NCBI GenBank assembly: GCA_049604715.1 | Contig: JBMYTV010000004.1 | Location: 22,535-86,534 of the forward strand | Origin: Patescibacteria group bacterium | GTDB lineage: Bacteria > Patescibacteriota > Patescibacteriia > S139-126 > S139-133 | DNA length: 64,000 nucleotides | Direction: 5' to 3' | Shown: piece after piece, positions 1,216-37,997 of the stretch | How positions within the stretch are numbered: position 1 is the stretch's first letter | How the letters are laid out: each line of letters begins with the position of its first letter | Made by a program: the position numbers and the translations under genes | The notes under the pieces: model-generated | What the model was told of the DNA's origin: nothing | What the model saw: only the letters and a program-made list of their open reading frames with translations | Databases searched by the model: none

Positions 1216-4200
1216 ATGACTAAGATTTCATTCCCAGAGCTTGAGGAGAAGATGTTGGAGCTTTGGAGCGATAAAGATATTTTTCGTAAAACCCTAGAAA
1301 AGGAAGCGCCTCAGGGTGATTTTGTATTTTATGAAGGACCGCCAACTGCAAATGGCAAACCTGCCATTCACCATGTACTAGCGCGGTCATTTAAAGATGC
1401 TGTTCCACGGTACAAGACAATGCGAGGATATCGCGTTGGTCGTAAGGCTGGTTGGGATACACATGGACTGCCAGTGGAACTGCAGGTAGAAAAGGCTCTG
1501 GAGATTTCAGGTAAGCCTGATATTGAAAAATACGGCGTCAAAGAGTTTAACCAAAAGTGTAAGGAATCTGTTTGGCAATACAAAAATGATTGGGAGAAGT
1601 TGACCGAGCGTATGGGGTATTGGGTTGATATGGATGATCCTTATGTGACGTATGACAATGACTATATTGAAAGTTTGTGGTGGATCATGAAAGAAGTATC
1701 AAAAAAAGACCTGCTGTACTTGGGGCACAAAGTAGTGCCGCATTGTCCACGTTGTGGAACAGCTCTTTCATCACACGAGGTTGCTCAAGGGTACAAAGAA
1801 GTAAAAGATATTTCTGTTTATGTGAAATTTAAATTAAAAATAAACAATTCAAAATTAAAAATTGATGGACCGGTTTATATATTGTCTTGGACGACAACCC
1901 CTTGGACATTGCCAGGTAATGTAGGTTTGGCAGTTGGTGAGGATATAGAGTATGTTGGTATTGAGCAAGACGGTGATACTGTGTTTGTTGCCAAGAGTTT
2001 GGTTGAAAATATTTTTGAAGACCCTAAGGTTGTTAAAACTATAAAAGGCAAAGATTTGGTTGGTAGTTCGTATGAACCACTTTTTCCTGGTGCAATTCCA
2101 GAAACTGCTGACAATTATGACAATGCGTACAAAGTATGGGCAGCAGATTTTGTGACTACTGAAGATGGTACTGGTGTTGTGCATACAGCAGTCATGTATG
2201 GTGAGGATGACTATCAGCTTGGTGAGAAAGTTGGTTTACCAAAGCATCACACAGTGTCAGCAGATGGTAAGTTTTCTTTTGATGCAAAAGATGGCGTACT
2301 TGGTGAGCTTGATGGCATGCCAGTGAAACATAAAGATCCAGATGTTGAGATTGAGACTACAAAGGTTATTTTGCGTTTTCTAGCAGACAACAATATTTTA
2401 TTGAAAAAGGAAAAGTATACTCATGATTATCCGTTTTGTTGGCGCTGCGATACGCCACTATTATACTATGCTAAGGATTCATGGTTTATTGCCATGTCAA
2501 AGTTGCGTGATGAGTTAAAAGAAAACAACGATGCAGTAAACTGGGTACCAGGTCATATCAAATCAGGTCGTTTTGGTGAATGGCTTGATGGTGTAAAAGA
2601 TTGGGCTATTTCACGTGAGCGCTATTGGGGTACGCCATTGCCGGTGTGGACGAGCGAGGATAACTCAGAGATTGAGGTGATTGGCTCAAGAAAAGAACTA
2701 TATGAAAGAGCAACCAAAGAAACAAAGCCAACTCGTATTCTCATTATGAGGCATTGTGAAGGAGAGCAAAATCTCGAGGGTATTAGTTCAGATAAGCTTG
2801 AAGGATATGCATTGACTAAAAAGGGCGTAAGCCAGGCAGAGGCTTTGAGAGAGGATATAAAGAATCGAGAAATAGACTATATATATGTATCACCAATACA
2901 AAGAACAAAAGAAACAGCTGAACTTATCAATGCTGAGCTAAATGTTGAGCTTATAGAAGATGATCGTTTACTTGAGCAAGCAACAGGTGAATGGGAAGGT
3001 ATGACGCGGGCAGAGCGCAGAGAGGATCCGTATTATACCCAGCGCACTCAGTATTGGAACAGTAACGATGAAAAGGCATTTACTACAAACTTTGGCAAGA
3101 CTGGTGAGAGCTTTCAAGACGTTCAAAAGCGAATGCATGACTTGTTTAAGGACATAGCCAAAAAACATCAAGGCAAGACAGTGCTTCTTGTAACTCATCA
3201 GGCAAACCTAGTGACTGTCTTGCAGTCATCACATGGGTATTCTCCTGTGCTTACTCAAAGAATGTTCAAGCATGAGCGTACCGCGCCAGGAACTAAGCCA
3301 TTTGAATTTTACTTTAACGCAGATGGTTCAGAGTTTGATCTGCACAAGCCATTTATTGATGATGTTGTTATTGAATCAGAAAAAGGCACCAAGCTAACTC
3401 GAGACAGTGCTGTGCTTGATGTGTGGTTTGATTCAGGTGCTATGCCATATGCGCAGTGGCATTACCCATTTGAGCGCGCTGAGTATATAGACGAAGGTAG
3501 TAAGTTTCCTGCTGATTTTATTTGTGAGGCTATTGATCAAACGCGCGGATGGTTTTATACACTACTAGCAGTATCGACATTATTAGGCAAAGAGGCTCCA
3601 TATAAGAATGTGATTTGTTTGGCGCATATCAATGACAAGGAAGGAAAGAAAATGTCAAAGAGTCGCGGCAATGTAGTTGATCCATGGGAGATGATGAACA
3701 AGTATGGTATCGATGCAGTACGACTTCTCTTTTATACTATGAACCAACCAGGTGACACCAAGAATTTTGACCCAGACCTTGTTGAGCAGATTATGAAAAA
3801 GAATTTCCTGATTCTTTGGAATGTGTTGTCTTTTTATAATATGTACGTCAAAACTGTTGAGGGTAAATATCCAGCAGAACATTCTACCCATGTGCTTGAT
3901 GAGTGGATTATGGCAAAGACAAAGCAGCTCGCTCGAGAAGTTACAGAAAAAATGGAGAATTATGACTTAACCATGGCAGGTAGGGCAATTATTGAGTATA
4001 TTCAGGAGCTATCTACTTGGTATGTGCGTCGTTCTCGTGATCGATTTAAGGCTGGTGGTGAAACTTCAGCACAAGCAGTTAAAACCCTTGGGTTTGTACT
4101 TTATGAACTCAGTAAGCTGATGGCGCCACTTACACCATTCACAGCAGAAGGGTTGTATCAAGAGCTGACACAAAATCATCCTGATAAAGAAAAAGATTTC

Positions 4201-4743
4201 AAAGAGTCAATCCACCTAGAAGATTGGCCAGAAGCGCCAGAGCTTTCAAAAGAAGAAACAGCTGCGCTTGATGCTATGGAAAGTGCTCGAAAGGTTGTAG
4301 AAAAAGCATTGGCAGCGCGCGCAGAAGCAAAATTAAAGATTAGACAACCTCTTGCATCTGTGACAGTGCCGGGTAGTTTTTCTGATGATTTGAAAGCGAT
4401 TATAGCAGAAGAAGTTAATGTGAAAAAAGTTATAGACAGTGGTGAGGATGTTGTGCTTGATACTAACCTTACAGATGAGTTGAAGGCAGAAGGTTTGGTA
4501 CGTGAGACTGTAAGGTTTATTAACTCGCTACGAAAAGAGGCAAAGCTCACCATCAACGATAAAGTTACAACAGCGCTTGTAACAAAAGATGAGGTTCTGC
4601 ATAGGATTTATACAGATCACAGCGAGTCACTACAGTCAGCAACATTATCAAATACAATTGAGGTATCTGAGCTTTCAGATTATGACATAGAAAAAGTTGT
4701 AAGCATTGAAGGTGCTGACGTAAAGATTCAAATCAAGAAGTAA
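1216..4743 (+). CDS. ileS: isoleucyl-tRNA synthetase (type 2) with an inserted histidine-phosphatase-like domain
   Basis: PPTANGKPAIHHVL (HIGH), WCRCDTPL, WAISRERYWGTPLPVW, DLHKPFIDD, KMSKSRGNVVDP; 1175 aa, with an extra domain of about 190-200 aa at roughly nt 2731-3330. Confidence 0.9.
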   Translation: MTKISFPELEEKMLELWSDKDIFRKTLEKEAPQGDFVFYEGPPTANGKPAIHHVLARSFKDAVPRYKTMRGYRVGRKAGWDTHGLPVELQVEKALEISGKPDIEKYGVKEFNQKCKESVWQYKNDWEKLTERMGYWVDMDDPYVTYDNDYIESLWWIMKEVSKKDLLYLGHKVVPHCPRCGTALSSHEVAQGYKEVKDISVYVKFKLKINNSKLKIDGPVYILSWTTTPWTLPGNVGLAVGEDIEYVGIEQDGDTVFVAKSLVENIFEDPKVVKTIKGKDLVGSSYEPLFPGAIPETADNYDNAYKVWAADFVTTEDGTGVVHTAVMYGEDDYQLGEKVGLPKHHTVSADGKFSFDAKDGVLGELDGMPVKHKDPDVEIETTKVILRFLADNNILLKKEKYTHDYPFCWRCDTPLLYYAKDSWFIAMSKLRDELKENNDAVNWVPGHIKSGRFGEWLDGVKDWAISRERYWGTPLPVWTSEDNSEIEVIGSRKELYERATKETKPTRILIMRHCEGEQNLEGISSDKLEGYALTKKGVSQAEALREDIKNREIDYIYVSPIQRTKETAELINAELNVELIEDDRLLEQATGEWEGMTRAERREDPYYTQRTQYWNSNDEKAFTTNFGKTGESFQDVQKRMHDLFKDIAKKHQGKTVLLVTHQANLVTVLQSSHGYSPVLTQRMFKHERTAPGTKPFEFYFNADGSEFDLHKPFIDDVVIESEKGTKLTRDSAVLDVWFDSGAMPYAQWHYPFERAEYIDEGSKFPADFICEAIDQTRGWFYTLLAVSTLLGKEAPYKNVICLAHINDKEGKKMSKSRGNVVDPWEMMNKYGIDAVRLLFYTMNQPGDTKNFDPDLVEQIMKKNFLILWNVLSFYNMYVKTVEGKYPAEHSTHVLDEWIMAKTKQLAREVTEKMENYDLTMAGRAIIEYIQELSTWYVRRSRDRFKAGGETSAQAVKTLGFVLYELSKLMAPLTPFTAEGLYQELTQNHPDKEKDFKESIHLEDWPEAPELSKEETAALDAMESARKVVEKALAARAEAKLKIRQPLASVTVPGSFSDDLKAIIAEEVNVKKVIDSGEDVVLDTNLTDELKAEGLVRETVRFINSLRKEAKLTINDKVTTALVTKDEVLHRIYTDHSESLQSATLSNTIEVSELSDYDIEKVVSIEGADVKIQIKK

Positions 4744-4748
4744 CTACC

Positions 4749-5402
4749 ATGTCCACGTTTGTCACTCCAGCAATTCCACTGCGTATTGATCCCTTTATGC
4801 GTGATGATGAGGTTGTGACATTATATACTCGATCGCATGGAAAACTGCAAGCGCGTATTCGTGGTGGTCAGAAGCTAAGCAGTAAATTGTCACAGCGGTT
4901 TCATGTTATGCAAGAACTTGATGTTATGATTGCGCCCGGTAGACACATGGCAATAGTTGCCGGAGTGCAGACTAGGCGTATGCTGCCACAACTACAAACA
5001 GATGCACTTCGGCGGATGGTAGCACTTTGTGTAACTGATACGCTTAACCAAATTACAGCAGAAAATGACGCTGCAGTAGATGTATATGATTTTGTATCTT
5101 TTTGGCTAGCTAGTATTGCAAGCGAGGTGCCAGCTAGGTTGCATGGATCATATGTAGCACTTATTGTATGGAGATTGCTTAGCAAAACCGGGTTTGCTCC
5201 TGACACTACTAATCTTAAGCATGTTATACTAGCAGCGTTACAGGATGCGTCAATTGAGTCAGAAGCACACATACTTATACAGTCGCTCCCGTTTGCTGAA
5301 CAAGTAGAAGCCGGTAGAGAAGCCCTGCCTATTATAGAGAGTATTTTAGAACAAGAAATAAAAGGACTTCGCGTTTTGCGAGATACAACTATTAGTTTTT
5401 AG
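4749..5402 (+). CDS. recO: DNA repair protein RecO-like
   Basis: N-terminal OB-fold-like pattern (DEVVTLYTRSHGKLQARIRGGQKLSSKL...), 217 aa, tightly linked downstream of ileS. Confidence 0.55.
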   Translation: MSTFVTPAIPLRIDPFMRDDEVVTLYTRSHGKLQARIRGGQKLSSKLSQRFHVMQELDVMIAPGRHMAIVAGVQTRRMLPQLQTDALRRMVALCVTDTLNQITAENDAAVDVYDFVSFWLASIASEVPARLHGSYVALIVWRLLSKTGFAPDTTNLKHVILAALQDASIESEAHILIQSLPFAEQVEAGREALPIIESILEQEIKGLRVLRDTTISF

Positions 5403-5405
5403 TAT

Positions 5406-7199
5406 ATGCCAGCAAAAAATATACGCTCACGAGCGTCATCTTCAAAAAAATCAAACAGCCGTTTGGTGCGCAAGCCATTTCGTATGCGATGGCTTATTGG
5501 TGTTATAGTTGTCGGAGCTATTGTGTCATGGACTTTGGGTTGGTGGCAGTTTGATATTTCACAACCTTCATCTAGCGGAGTAAGTGTGGCTATTGATGCG
5601 CCTGACACAGTTGCATCAGGTGAGATTGTTAATTTACAGATACACATTACCAATGAAGAAAACGTTGCTATAGCAGAGGCTGATCTATCAATACAGTGGC
5701 CAGATGAATTACGTGTAATTGAAAGTAGTGTAGAGCCTCGTAGTATTGCCATGAGTAGCTGGACGCTTGATGAGATAGCAGTTGGTGAGAAAGTAACTAT
5801 TGATATTACAGCTCAAGCATTTGGTGAGGTGGGTGATGCAAAGGTAATTGACGCAACGCTTGTATATGAACTACAGAACTTTAGTTCGAACTTTTTTACA
5901 GAAGGAGTGCATAATTTTGTTATAGGTACAAAGATCGTTGACGTTGTATTTGATGAAACTGATGATCTGCCTCCACTGACAGAAAACGTATGGCGTATTG
6001 TTGTTACTAACGCTGATGATGAGACTCTTCCTTTGAGCTGGTTAAGAATTGTATTTCCACAGGGGTTTGAAGTAATTGAGATATCGCCTGAGCATGACGT
6101 GGTTGATTATGAGGAGTCAAAAGCAGCTATTGTGCCGCTTGATGGTATGGAAGTTGGTGAACAACAGGTACTAAAAATAACAGGGTTGTTTGCAGCTGGC
6201 ACACAAGGGAAATCAAATTTTGTTTGGCAGTATGGCATTGATACTGACGAAGATCCTCGCATTATCCAGGAAGGTTCATATGAGCAGTATGTGATTGGTG
6301 ATGAGGCTGAGGTTGAGGTTCTTTTAAACGGTGAAGAAGAACTTTCAGAACTTTCGTGGGGGGATGAGTTAGTTGTTAATTTGCGAGCACGTAACATCAC
6401 ATCAGAGGACCTAACTAATCTTGAGTGGTCACTTACTATCCCACCAAGTATGGTGACTTGGTCAGGTATACGTAGTGATTCGACGCTTTCTACTGATCAG
6501 TCAAGTGGTGTTGTGAGGCTTTTACCAGAAGATAATGACGTTTTGAAAATAATTCCAGCAGGTGATGAGCTAGAGCTTTCAGTGATTGTACCACTTGCTT
6601 CATCAGCTCAGTCACAAACATCATTTACAGGTTCAGCACGTTTGAGGTTAACGACTGAGAGCTCAGAAGAGCCATTGTCATTTACTAAAAGTTTTGGCCC
6701 CATCCAGCTTAGTGAAACAGTAAATTGGCATACAACAGCTCATTATTATTCAGATGAGGGCATTCAAGTTGGCTCTGGCCCATTGCCGCCACGAGTTGAT
6801 GACAATACAAATTACGAGATCAATTGGAATGTAGGAAGTGTTGCTGGGAATGTGGGGAGTCTCACAGTTCGTGCAACTTTGCCGCCTGATGTGAGGTGGA
6901 ATAACCAATTTTCAAGCAACCAAGGTAATGTGACTTATGTCGCCAGTACACGCCAGGTTGTTTGGTCTGTTAGTGACGTTTCTGGGTATGATTTTACTCT
7001 TGGCGAACTAGAGGCGAAGTGGGAAGCCGGCATAACTCCAAATGAGAGTGACCTTGGTACAGTCATTACACTTACTGGTGCAGCGCAAATAGAATTAACT
7101 ACAAGTGATGGTGAAATAGTTCGACTGACTAATCCGGCATTGACTACTGCACTCGAAGGTGATATTTTTGCACAGAATAAAGGAGTTGTTAGAGAGTAG
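5406..7199 (+). CDS. membrane-anchored surface protein with repeated beta-rich domains, hypothetical
   Basis: Basic N-terminus, one TM helix (WLIGVIVVGAIVSWTLGWW), then about 540 aa of acidic Ser/Thr-rich repeated segments. Confidence 0.45.
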   Translation: MPAKNIRSRASSSKKSNSRLVRKPFRMRWLIGVIVVGAIVSWTLGWWQFDISQPSSSGVSVAIDAPDTVASGEIVNLQIHITNEENVAIAEADLSIQWPDELRVIESSVEPRSIAMSSWTLDEIAVGEKVTIDITAQAFGEVGDAKVIDATLVYELQNFSSNFFTEGVHNFVIGTKIVDVVFDETDDLPPLTENVWRIVVTNADDETLPLSWLRIVFPQGFEVIEISPEHDVVDYEESKAAIVPLDGMEVGEQQVLKITGLFAAGTQGKSNFVWQYGIDTDEDPRIIQEGSYEQYVIGDEAEVEVLLNGEEELSELSWGDELVVNLRARNITSEDLTNLEWSLTIPPSMVTWSGIRSDSTLSTDQSSGVVRLLPEDNDVLKIIPAGDELELSVIVPLASSAQSQTSFTGSARLRLTTESSEEPLSFTKSFGPIQLSETVNWHTTAHYYSDEGIQVGSGPLPPRVDDNTNYEINWNVGSVAGNVGSLTVRATLPPDVRWNNQFSSNQGNVTYVASTRQVVWSVSDVSGYDFTLGELEAKWEAGITPNESDLGTVITLTGAAQIELTTSDGEIVRLTNPALTTALEGDIFAQNKGVVRE

Positions 7200-7204
7200 T
7201 AATT

Positions 7205-8329
7205 ATGAAGTATTCACTATCAAAATCATCTACTGTTTCTCAAGCACGCCGCGGCGTGCTTGAACTTTCGCATGGGAGTATAGAGGCGCCCTTTTTTATG
7301 CCTATTGCAACAAAGGGTGCTGTAAAGTCTATCACGACTACAGAGATGAGATTGCTAGGGGCACAGATTTTGCTCTCCAATACGTATCATCTATATCTTC
7401 GCCCTGGTACTGAAGTTTTGGACCAGGTGGGTGGACTACATACATTTATGGATTGGAAAGGACCCATTTTGACTGATTCGGGTGGTTTTCAGGTGTTCTC
7501 ACTGAGTGGTACTAAGTCACGCAAGGATAATCTAGTTAAAATATTTGATGATCGAGTAGAGTTTCAATCACATATTGATGGTTCAAAACATATATTTACA
7601 CCAGAAAAGGTACTTGATATTCAAAAGTCTATTGGTTCTGATGTAATGATGATTTTGGATGTGTGTACTGCTAACCCAGCAACACATGAACAGGCAATAC
7701 ATGACTTGGAGATCACAACTGCGTGGGCACGTCGAGCAAAAGAGCATTATGAAAAAGGAAGTTTTAAAGATCAATCAATGTTTGGTATTGTCCAAGGATC
7801 AACATATAGTGATTTGAGACAACAGTCAGCTCAAGATCTAGTAAGCTTGGATTTTGACGGATATGCTATTGGCGGTTTGGCTGTGGGAGAGTCTGAGGTG
7901 GATATGTACGCTATGCTTGATGTGACGACTCATCTTTTGCCTGAGGATGCGCCGCGGTATTTAATGGGAGTAGGAAAACCAGAGAATATTATAGAGGCAG
8001 TGAAGCGAGGTGTTGATATGTTTGATTGTGTTATTCCAACACGTGAGGCACGACATGGTCGTCTTTATCTTTGGCAGAACAAAGATGTAACAAAGCCTGG
8101 TTTTTATAAGACCGTTGCTATTACAAACGCATCATATGCTACTGACTTCACACCCCTGGTCGCTGACTCAAAAATTCCAGAACTACAAAATTTAACTAAA
8201 GCTTACTTGCATCATTTGTTTCGCACCTCAGAACCTTTAGCACTTCGTATTGCAAGTCTTATTAATATAGAATTTTATCTTACTCTTATGCAGCGTATTC
8301 GTGCTGCAATTGAAGCTGATCAACTGTAG
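7205..8329 (+). CDS. tgt: queuine tRNA-ribosyltransferase
   Basis: LLSNTYHLYLRPG, LTDSGGFQVFSL, GIVQGSTY, DGYAIGGLAVGE, MGVGKPENIIEAV, MFDCVIPTR; C-terminal CxCxxC zinc motif absent. Confidence 0.85.
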   Translation: MKYSLSKSSTVSQARRGVLELSHGSIEAPFFMPIATKGAVKSITTTEMRLLGAQILLSNTYHLYLRPGTEVLDQVGGLHTFMDWKGPILTDSGGFQVFSLSGTKSRKDNLVKIFDDRVEFQSHIDGSKHIFTPEKVLDIQKSIGSDVMMILDVCTANPATHEQAIHDLEITTAWARRAKEHYEKGSFKDQSMFGIVQGSTYSDLRQQSAQDLVSLDFDGYAIGGLAVGESEVDMYAMLDVTTHLLPEDAPRYLMGVGKPENIIEAVKRGVDMFDCVIPTREARHGRLYLWQNKDVTKPGFYKTVAITNASYATDFTPLVADSKIPELQNLTKAYLHHLFRTSEPLALRIASLINIEFYLTLMQRIRAAIEADQL

Positions 8330-22476: not shown

Positions 22477-22552
22477 GCCGTTGTAGCTCAGTTGGTAGAG
22501 CGCATCCATGGTAAGGATGAGGTCTCGGGTTCAAACCCCGACAACGGCTCCA
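22477..22552 (+). tRNA. tRNA-Thr (anticodon GGU)
   Basis: Cloverleaf folded by hand: acceptor GCCGTTG/CAACGGC, D-arm GCTC/GAGC, anticodon arm CATCC-ATGGTAA-GGATG, T-arm TCGGG-TTCAAAC-CCCGA, CCA encoded. Confidence 0.8.
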
Positions 22553-22556
22553 TTGG

Positions 22557-22642
22557 GGGTCGGTACCGAAGCGGTCAAACGGGGCAGACTGTAAATCTGC
22601 TGGCATACGCCTTCGTAGGTTCGAATCCTGCCCGGCCCACCA
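22557..22642 (+). tRNA. tRNA-Tyr (anticodon GUA), long variable arm
   Basis: Acceptor GGGTCGG/CCGGCCC (one G.U), anticodon arm GCAGA-CTGTAAA-TCTGC, long variable arm, T-loop TTCGAAT, CCA encoded. Confidence 0.75.
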
Positions 22643-22655
22643 TACCAAATATACT

Positions 22656-22731
22656 GCCACCCTAGCTCAGCTGGTAGAGCAACGGTTTTGTAAACCGTAG
22701 GTCATCGGTTCGAATCCGATGGGTGGCTCCA
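22656..22731 (+). tRNA. tRNA-Thr (anticodon UGU)
   Basis: Acceptor GCCACCC/GGGTGGC, anticodon arm ACGGT-TTTGTAA-ACCGT, T-arm ATCGG-TTCGAAT-CCGAT, CCA encoded. Confidence 0.8.
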
Positions 22732-23740: not shown

Positions 23741-23815
23741 GGGGGTGTAGTGAAATGGCTATCACCACGGTCTCCAAAACCGTTATTCTAGGTTCGAGTC
23801 CTAGCACCCCTGCCA
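23741..23815 (+). tRNA. tRNA-Trp (anticodon CCA)
   Basis: Acceptor GGGGGTG/CACCCCT (one G.U), D-arm GTGA/TCAC, anticodon arm ACGGT-CTCCAAA-ACCGT, T-arm CTAGG-TTCGAGT-CCTAG, CCA encoded. Confidence 0.85.
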
Positions 23816-37723: not shown

Positions 37724-37997
37724 CTCGCCTTCGCAAGAAGGTGAGAATGAGCTAGTATACACTGGACTTTTAGGTCTATTAGAGCTAAAATGTCATTGAC
37801 AATTGAGATTACCTAACCCCATAAATATTCGTGTTTATGGGCATGGTAGAAAGACTCGTGAAAGATACTGAACCCTGCGTTCAGCGCTTTCACGAGCCAT
37901 ATGGGGAAACTCATATGGGTCCGCAAGGACCAGCTGGCGTGGGGCTTTGTGTTTCCATAGCCAGCGAGCTTAATAATAGTCTACTAACTACACATCT

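Follow-up and report, generated by a model that had tools for sequence, protein, structure and literature searches.

A histidine phosphatase domain nested within the isoleucyl-tRNA synthetase of a patescibacterial genome

Few enzymes are as conserved as the aminoacyl-tRNA synthetases, and extra domains found in them have repeatedly revealed editing, signaling, and resistance functions. A gene from the Patescibacteria, a vast radiation of mostly uncultured bacteria, raises the question of what a second enzyme might be doing inside such a protein. The gene, ileS, lies in the 64,000-nucleotide stretch of DNA that we analyzed (contig JBMYTV010000004.1 of assembly GCA_049604715.1, positions 22,535 to 86,534 of the forward strand; referred to here as the window). 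It occupies positions 1216 to 4743 of the + strand and encodes a type 2 isoleucyl-tRNA synthetase (IleRS) of 1175 amino acids (aa) with a nested phosphatase domain, as judged by the open reading frame (ORF) list, the TIGR00392 profile, and an AlphaFold2 (AF2) model. An earlier note, made from the DNA sequence of the window, had claimed that this IleRS contains an internal histidine phosphatase domain of the PGAM/SixA type. Is the domain genuine, is it likely to be active, and does its activity have anything to do with the charging of tRNA-Ile?

The reading frame of ileS runs through positions 1216 to 4743 (+) without a stop or a frameshift, and its product matched the ileS equivalog profile TIGR00392 at 891 bits (cutoff, 621.4) in two stretches, one on either side of an insert. 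In the Pfam scan, tRNA-synt_1 was likewise found in two parts with the histidine phosphatase family PF00300 (His_Phos_1) between them, at aa 508 to 682 (E = 7.4e-39; 133.9 bits versus a cutoff of 21.7). The excised insert alone matched the same family with an E value of 1.9e-40 (139 bits). The full-length AF2 model of the IleRS had a pLDDT (predicted local distance difference test) score of 91.6 and a pTM (predicted template modeling) score of 0.86; the corresponding values for a model of the domain on its own were 96.8 and 0.92.

Where the insert begins and ends was apparent from the relatives of the window protein. Among its 120 best full-length relatives, the spacing between the motifs that flank the insert was bimodal, with 180 to 240 residues in 72 of them (the carriers) and 22 to 39 residues in the other 48 (the non-carriers). 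Boundary alignment with the 48 non-carriers placed the whole insert at aa ~497 to 707 (positions 2704 to 3336, +), which includes linkers at aa 499 to 505 and 701 to 707. Within it, PF00300, the AF2 model, Foldseek, and a profile comparison with Protein Data Bank (PDB) sequences delimited a folded branch 1 histidine phosphatase domain at aa 506 to 700 (positions 2731 to 3315, +). The first strand of this domain spans aa 506 to 512 in the AF2 model and the last strand spans aa 696 to 700, with ordered linkers of ~7 residues each. When aa 499 to 704 were removed, the flanks were colinear with the solved type 2 enzymes (IleRS2) of P. megaterium (8C8U; E = 9e-68) and T. thermophilus (1ILE), and a 6-residue gap fell exactly at the junction; the insertion loop corresponds to residues ~474 to 487 of 8C8U. 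The equivalent point in relatives falls inside a zinc knuckle, with one Cys pair on either side (CxxC...VIGS..EL-insert-DLH(R/K)P.ID...CxC), and the window IleRS is itself without all four of these cysteines (positions ~2650 to 2673 and ~3364 to 3387; aa 479 to 486 and 717 to 724). The G+C content of the insert is similar to that of its flanks. Within the catalytic domain, the insert sits at the tip of the zinc-knuckle loop of the connective-peptide region, to which two linkers of ~7 residues join it.

These results bear out the earlier note's view that the continuous frame reflects a domain insertion and not two genes, since a single ORF has flanks colinear with 8C8U and 1ILE, and the coordinates that it gave for the domain (2731 to 3330, i.e., aa 506 to 705) fit the folded unit. 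Its spacing values require correction: WGTPLPVW (aa 471 to 478) and DLHKP (aa 708) are separated by 229 residues in the window protein and by 22 to 39 in non-carriers, rather than by ~270 and ~70, which leaves the net insert of ~200 aa unchanged.

To which histidine phosphatases is the domain related? The best Foldseek matches were PspA (4IJ5/4IJ6) and PhoE (1H2E/1EBB), with TM scores of ~0.75 to 0.77, root mean square deviations (rmsd) of ~2.5 Å, and probabilities of 1.00 to PspA, PhoE, and CobC. A profile of the inserts was closest among PDB sequences to PhoE (1EBB/1H2E; E = 4.6e-37), PspA (4IJ5), and CobC. By these sequence and model comparisons, the domain is best described as PhoE/PspA/CobC-like and as neither SixA-like nor a mutase, so the SixA-like label in the earlier note is not supported. 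The SixA model TIGR00249 gave 27 to 33 bits against a cutoff of 74.5 and was matched only at profile positions 2 to 68 of ~154, by the N-terminal ~70 residues of the insert. For dPGM, the models NF038349, NF002339, and NF010718 and related models gave 87.6 to 92.9 bits versus 225, 31.5 versus 316, and 27.4 versus 366, and dPGM structures aligned only with ~30 to 40 extra residues at an rmsd of 7 to 8 Å. The curated cutoff of the GpmB equivalog was not reached. Nor did the domain qualify as an equivalog of its closest relatives: PspA, although the best fold match, was 27 to 28% identical, and its model NF045917 gave 94.9 to 99 bits versus a cutoff of 350, while the alpha-ribazole phosphatase (CobC) models TIGR03162 and NF011580 gave 84 to 88.5 bits versus 162.9 and 64 to 68 bits versus 250, respectively.

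The catalytic core of a branch 1 histidine phosphatase is complete in the window domain. Residues R512, H513, N519, R563, E587, R639, and H661 are the canonical branch 1 residues, which comprise the nucleophilic His, the phosphate pocket, and the general acid. R512 and H513, the predicted phospho-accepting nucleophile, form the RHC (RHG) motif (positions 2749 to 2754, +) and were conserved in 100% of the 72 carriers and in 99% of 100 domains at the same insertion site as in the window (site A); the Gly of the RHG motif is a Cys in the window protein and a Gly in 84% of carriers. The phosphate-pocket residues N519 (positions 2770 to 2772, +) and R563 of SPxxR (positions 2902 to 2904, +) were 95% and 100% conserved, respectively, as were R639 (100% across the 72 carriers) and the second catalytic His, H661 of VTHQ (positions 3196 to 3198, +; 100%). 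E587, in RLLEQ (positions 2974 to 2976, +; 95 to 97% conserved), is the predicted general acid/base, a role given to it by homology to E89 of dPGM. The four motifs that the earlier note had quoted are present as written; one of them, GEWEG, had been taken for the acid motif, a function that falls instead to E587, and only its G591 is strongly conserved.

The catalytic residues were 95 to 100% conserved although the inserts average 35% identity (59% for the IleRS cores). Judged from sequence, the nested domain is kept by purifying selection across deeply diverged Patescibacteria. The embedded domains also have a distinctive loop adjacent to the active site, in which the family's conserved Gly, found in 91% of free-standing domains, is retained in 15% of embedded ones and replaced by Ser/Thr in the others. 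The solved proteins PhoE (YhfR), a broad-specificity phosphatase of Geobacillus stearothermophilus, and PspA, a metal-independent phosphoserine phosphatase of Hydrogenobacter thermophilus, resemble the window domain in fold, length (~200 aa), catalytic residues, and the absence of dPGM-specific insertions; they differ from it in being free-standing, in sequence (27 to 29% identity), and in their conserved QG loop, where the embedded domains have Ser/Thr.

The enzyme that hosts the domain has the features of a working synthetase. Its domain order (Rossmann, connective peptide 1 [CP1] editing, zinc knuckles, anticodon-binding, and IleRS2 C-terminal) is that of 8C8U and 1ILE, from which it differs by the ~200-aa phosphatase insert and the loss of the four knuckle cysteines. 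The Thr-rich motif of the CP1 editing domain, WTTTPWTLP (aa 225 to 233; positions 1888 to 1914, +), is intact and W225 to P233 were invariant in an alignment of 89 patescibacterial IleRS, in which the second editing motif, GTGVVHTA...D, also fell at invariant columns. The KMSKS loop of the synthetic site (aa 812 to 816; positions 3649 to 3663, +) is intact as well, with K812, M813, S814, and K815 invariant. The class I signature, KMSKS, and editing motif columns were invariant in carriers and non-carriers alike. The anticodon-binding domain PF08264 (aa 895 to 1047) and the IleRS2 C-terminal domain PF19302 (aa 1077 to 1175) follow at positions 3898 to 4740 (+) in the Pfam scan. The gene order ileS, RecO_N, ~650-aa protein, and, further on, TGT is also found beside the insert-free IleRS P0134 of a relative (locus L081, 10976 to 15472). 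Since the synthetic and editing motifs are all kept and synteny is shared with an insert-free orthologue, the IleRS part presumably still charges tRNA-Ile. The intact motifs and the matching gene order of insert-free relatives likewise identify the window gene, at the level of sequence, as the orthologous housekeeping ileS rather than an extra copy; no second ileS was found within the 64-kb window. Taken together, we are highly confident that the window encodes a real, nested, and active phosphatase in a housekeeping IleRS.

The insert is widespread, old, and patchy across the Patescibacteria and is not unique to the window genome. An identical protein (P0121) was present in a Patescibacteria metagenome-assembled genome at NCBI; named carriers came from the Komeilibacteria, Uhrbacteria, Taylorbacteria, Pacebacteria, and Parcubacteria; and nine GTDB species representatives had the insert, among them Yanofskybacteria, Paceibacterota, two labelled Saccharibacteria, and others. 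The Komeilibacteria included one carrier and one non-carrier. On a neighbor-joining (NJ) tree of 881 core columns, carriers were non-monophyletic, with ~12 state changes by parsimony, and the window core was closer to non-carriers (62 to 66% identity) than to most carriers (~50%). Pairwise identities of the insert and the core were correlated (r = 0.58). With regard to a single origin versus repeated capture, the NJ trees of cores and domains, which have distances of 0.6 to 0.7 and no support values, suggest a patchy presence together with a mostly coherent cluster of embedded domains. The earlier note's expectations on these points were borne out: PF00300 was matched, related IleRS carry the insert (72 of the 120), the catalytic His and Arg are both conserved, and the insert is no standard feature of IleRS, with 48 of the 120 closest full-length enzymes doing without it. 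In the Yanofskybacteria GTDB representative (L009), a run of Ns at 6239 to 6251, within the phosphatase-coding part, makes ileS falsely appear as two ORFs; the run is an assembly gap.

Relatives of the domain itself extended the picture to other positions in IleRS. An exhaustive HMMER search with the domain alone returned 12,690 relatives, none above 115 bits. The best 150 of these comprised free-standing proteins of ~200 aa, tandem proteins of ~410 aa, and many large proteins; when 27 of the large proteins were scanned with Pfam, every synthetase among them was an IleRS. Three insertion positions were found: site A; site A2, just past the DLHK motif, which holds a second copy in P0247; and site B, the loop that leads from the last catalytic/stem-contact helix to the first helix of the anticodon-binding domain. 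The loop equivalent to site B is empty in the window protein (aa ~879 to 892; positions 3850 to 3891, +), as located by alignment, by the Pfam coordinates of P0261, P0242, and P0268, and by the secondary structure of the model. P0261 has a His_Phos domain only at site B, and P0242 and P0268 have one at both site A and site B. The carriers include HYGH-type IleRS that are just 38 to 41% identical to the GIHH-type enzyme of the window.

Enzymes with two copies, either in tandem at site A or at sites A and B, were found among P0242, P0247, P0268, P0244, P0249, P0265, and P0245, and a further protein, P0253, has three His_Phos copies, its identity as an IleRS being unconfirmed. The extra copies keep the catalytic residues, with the exception of a single substitution at N519 or R639 in two copies. 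The embedded domains mostly clustered together on the domain tree, on which the site B copy of P0242 was nearest to free-standing proteins; both intragenic duplication and fresh capture are possible. No separate His_Phos gene was found within ±6 kb of ileS in ~70 insert-free loci, and none stands beside P0134. Since no such gene adjoins ileS in those loci, the link between IleRS and phosphatase is no relic of an operon.

Some relatives of the insert were not part of an IleRS of this kind. The best domain match, P0241 (115 bits), and ~25 similar proteins of ~410 aa consist of two tandem His_Phos domains; these free-standing proteins are among the closest relatives of the insert. Nothing informative emerged from the genes around the nearest free-standing homologue (P0246) or the nearest tandem one (P0241). 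In P0347 (1066 aa, JGI), an IS200-like Y1 transposase domain interrupts the N-terminal part of an IleRS, His_Phos and a C-terminal GNAT domain follow, and there is no anticodon-binding domain; the protein may be chimeric, may come from a pseudogene, or may represent a truly different architecture. P0370 (1034 aa) combines TIR, NACHT, and HEAT repeats with a terminal His_Phos domain related to the insert (72 bits) and matched PADLOC TIR models weakly; its architecture resembles that of a STAND NTPase of the conflict or defense type with a histidine phosphatase as one of its modules.

What might the domain do? From the chemistry of its family, it would act as a phosphomonoesterase. Attack by H513 on a phosphate monoester would give a phospho-histidine intermediate, with E587 protonating the leaving group and R512, N519, R563, and H661 holding the phosphate, and water would then free Pi (inorganic phosphate). 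The weakest step in the proposal is the next one, namely, that the phosphatase would meet its substrate at the IleRS and that this substrate would be no unrelated metabolite. Because the domain is always internal, occupies three sites that flank the KMSKS half of the active-site domain, occurs in multiple apparently active copies, is confined to IleRS in the set of synthetases examined, and belongs to a specialized subfamily, its substrate is probably met at the IleRS. Overall, our preferred reading, that the phosphatase is functionally coupled to the IleRS, is tentative, with a probability of roughly 0.45.

The most plausible candidate substrates would be tRNA-Ile whose 3' end is blocked by a phosphate or pyrophosphate, the IleRS itself when one of its residues is phosphorylated, and a phosphorylated adenylate-like ligand or inhibitor. 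There are precedents for modifications of these kinds: toxSAS toxins pyrophosphorylate the CCA ends of other tRNAs, with tRNA specificity (PMC11559606; 10.1101/2021.04.30.441581), and Hip kinases phosphorylate class I aminoacyl-tRNA synthetases, inactivating GltX and TrpS (PMC6581861). Charging can thus indeed be halted by phosphorylation of a synthetase or of the 3' end of a tRNA. By analogy, the nested phosphatase could be a built-in repair or immunity module for Ile charging, which would strip inhibitory phosphate or pyrophosphate groups. Such a module would be held on the connective-peptide region, near the path of the acceptor end, where its targets might be the 3' end of tRNA-Ile (toxSAS-type damage), a serine of the KMSKS region (Hip-type kinases), or a phosphorylated inhibitor that mimics Ile-adenylate. 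We regard this specific version of coupling as speculative and improbable. The hydrolases that reverse tRNA pyrophosphorylation by toxSAS are a functional analogy only, with no sequence relationship to the insert.

Several observations weigh against coupling, and some of them speak for a mechanistically independent bifunctional protein. In the latter scenario, the domain would be an ordinary metabolic phosphatase, for phosphoserine, sugar phosphates, or nucleotides, lodged in a permissive surface loop of IleRS and unconnected in function with aminoacylation, and the only gain would be one of co-expression or stability in a reduced genome. The nearest characterized relatives of the insert are small-molecule phosphatases (PhoE, PspA, E. 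histolytica PSP, the riboflavin-pathway enzyme HFP, and CobC being the closest solved ones). The substrate cap (aa ~593 to 631) varies in length and sequence among carriers, which fits a generic phosphate-pocket enzyme no less well than a cis-acting one. No IleRS core residues were found to co-vary with the insert; the top columns merely track clades, and at almost all of the core columns that best separate the two groups the window protein has the residue typical of non-carriers. The insert is freely gained and lost among close relatives, and the patchy distribution, with close relatives that do without it, indicates that its function is dispensable. Free-standing and tandem homologues are abundant. 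On the domain tree, the site B domain of P0261 was nearest to site A domains, and duplication of a resident domain within the gene, instead of independent capture, could account for the extra sites and copies, which weakens the argument from recurrent insertion. No family of the anti-phage defense collection PADLOC-DB matched the insert at E <= 0.01. Finally, the second-best NCBIfam match was itself a His_Phos fusion, the bifunctional RNase H/acid phosphatase NF005567 (M. tuberculosis Rv2228c type; 96 to 99 bits versus 326), in which a CobC/PhoE-like domain is joined to a nucleic acid enzyme.

That protein is, however, a terminal fusion with a different partner, whereas the domain in the window is nested, and fusions that serve co-expression are usually terminal. 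The IleRS insert is always internal, at three positions and sometimes in multiple copies, and only IleRS has it among the synthetases scanned. The embedded domains moreover stand apart as a subfamily in which the active-site loop is altered, and the equivalog cutoffs for PspA, CobC, dPGM, and GpmB were all missed. We therefore consider an unrelated metabolic phosphatase to be unlikely, albeit a serious competitor to functional coupling.

A structural or tRNA-binding role, in which the domain would serve as a scaffold that replaces the zinc knuckle or adds an RNA-binding surface and catalysis would be irrelevant, draws on the zinc site. All four zinc-knuckle cysteines were lost in 26 of 72 carriers versus 4 of 48 non-carriers (counts that ignore phylogeny), and the window protein is among those that have lost them, so that the phosphatase domain may replace the zinc site structurally; the short, ordered linkers also suggest a fixed position. 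The zinc site is nonetheless still present in 46 of the 72 carriers, and a purely structural role would not keep seven catalytic and pocket residues 95 to 100% conserved at ~35% overall identity and likewise in the extra copies. We consider a purely structural explanation very unlikely.

Equally improbable, in our estimate, is that the gene encodes a specialized second IleRS, either for antibiotic self-resistance or as a regulatory paralogue, whose phosphatase serves a special role. The suggestion comes from the class I signature, which is A-I-H-H in the window protein (aa 50 to 53; positions 1363 to 1374, +), a swapped, noncanonical form for which the clade consensus in the alignment is G-I-H-H. 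A G/AXHH motif, in which positions 1 and 3 of HXGH are swapped so that Gly or Ala comes first and His third, has been described in mupirocin-hyper-resistant IleRS2 (Brkic et al. 2023, PMC10485003). With A50-I51-H52-H53 and the IleRS2 C-terminal domain PF19302, the window protein falls within the IleRS2 G/AXHH class. NCBIfam also holds "exception" IleRS models (MupA, MupB, and ileS_w_GNAT). The motif is nevertheless common to carriers and non-carriers throughout the clade, with H52 and H53 invariant in the 89 aligned patescibacterial IleRS with or without an insert, and the MupA and MupB models (NF000257 and NF000258) gave 766 and 797 bits versus 1900. The model NF040702 (ileS_w_GNAT) describes a curated IleRS with an additional enzymatic domain, which is an acetyltransferase and not a phosphatase; the window protein matched only its IleRS part (314 bits versus 1999) and had no GNAT match in Pfam. 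The gene order is that of a relative's insert-free ileS, the window has no second ileS, and Patescibacteria genomes are small.

An artifact, whether a misassembly, a chimeric contig, or adjacent genes fused by sequencing error, might be suspected from the metagenome-type source and from the split appearance of ileS in L009, but that split is due to a run of Ns, and the continuous frame, the exact resumption of IleRS sequence where it was interrupted, the flank-like G+C content, the identical protein in an independent record, the 72 full-length homologues from many samples, and the nine GTDB representatives leave this explanation a negligible chance.

Synthetases with added catalytic domains are already known, and an IleRS with a nested phosphatase appears to be an undescribed case. 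Full-text literature searches, whose coverage left out most subscription journals, turned up no description of one, and no insert of this kind is mentioned by Brkic et al. 2023 (PMC10485003) or in a 2026 preprint that deals with the evolution of IleRS domains. The review PMC6429109 was considered as a possible prior description and proved to be a coincidental co-mention. The carrier sequences are public, some of them in UniRef, under the names "class I tRNA ligase family protein," "isoleucine--tRNA ligase," and "hypothetical protein," with fragments named "histidine phosphatase family protein, partial"; such generic names hide the architecture.

The significance of the locus lies in a second, apparently active catalytic center of another enzyme class, which an essential synthetase harbors within its catalytic domain and which has been kept across many lineages. 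If the phosphatase acts on tRNA-Ile, on the IleRS, or on one of its ligands, it would add a new layer of translation quality control or defense and might point to a new class of natural attack on Ile charging. If it is a repair module, an aminoacyl-tRNA synthetase would for the first time be known to dephosphorylate its own substrate or itself, which would make the IleRS self-protecting in bacteria whose attached life on other cells exposes them to constant attack by chemicals and toxins. Should the domain instead be an unrelated metabolic enzyme, it would be a clean natural case of domain nesting in a zinc-knuckle loop, one that shows how reduced genomes pack functions and offers protein engineers a permissive insertion site in a class Ia synthetase.

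Downstream of ileS, the ORFs at positions 4749 to 8329 (+) comprise a recO-like gene (4749 to 5402), a gene for a 597-aa protein (5406 to 7199), and tgt (7205 to 8329). The ~600- to 650-aa protein between the recO-like gene and tgt has a weak CLIPPER match in the relative L081. Elsewhere in the window, three adjacent tRNA genes (positions 22477 to 22728, +) are followed by a fourth ~1 kb downstream (23741 to 23812, +; Rfam tRNA, 56 to 72 bits), and a LOOT RNA, a small RNA motif (Rfam RF03000), lies at positions 37810 to 37931 (+), where it was matched over its full length at 85.8 bits versus a gathering score of 46.4.

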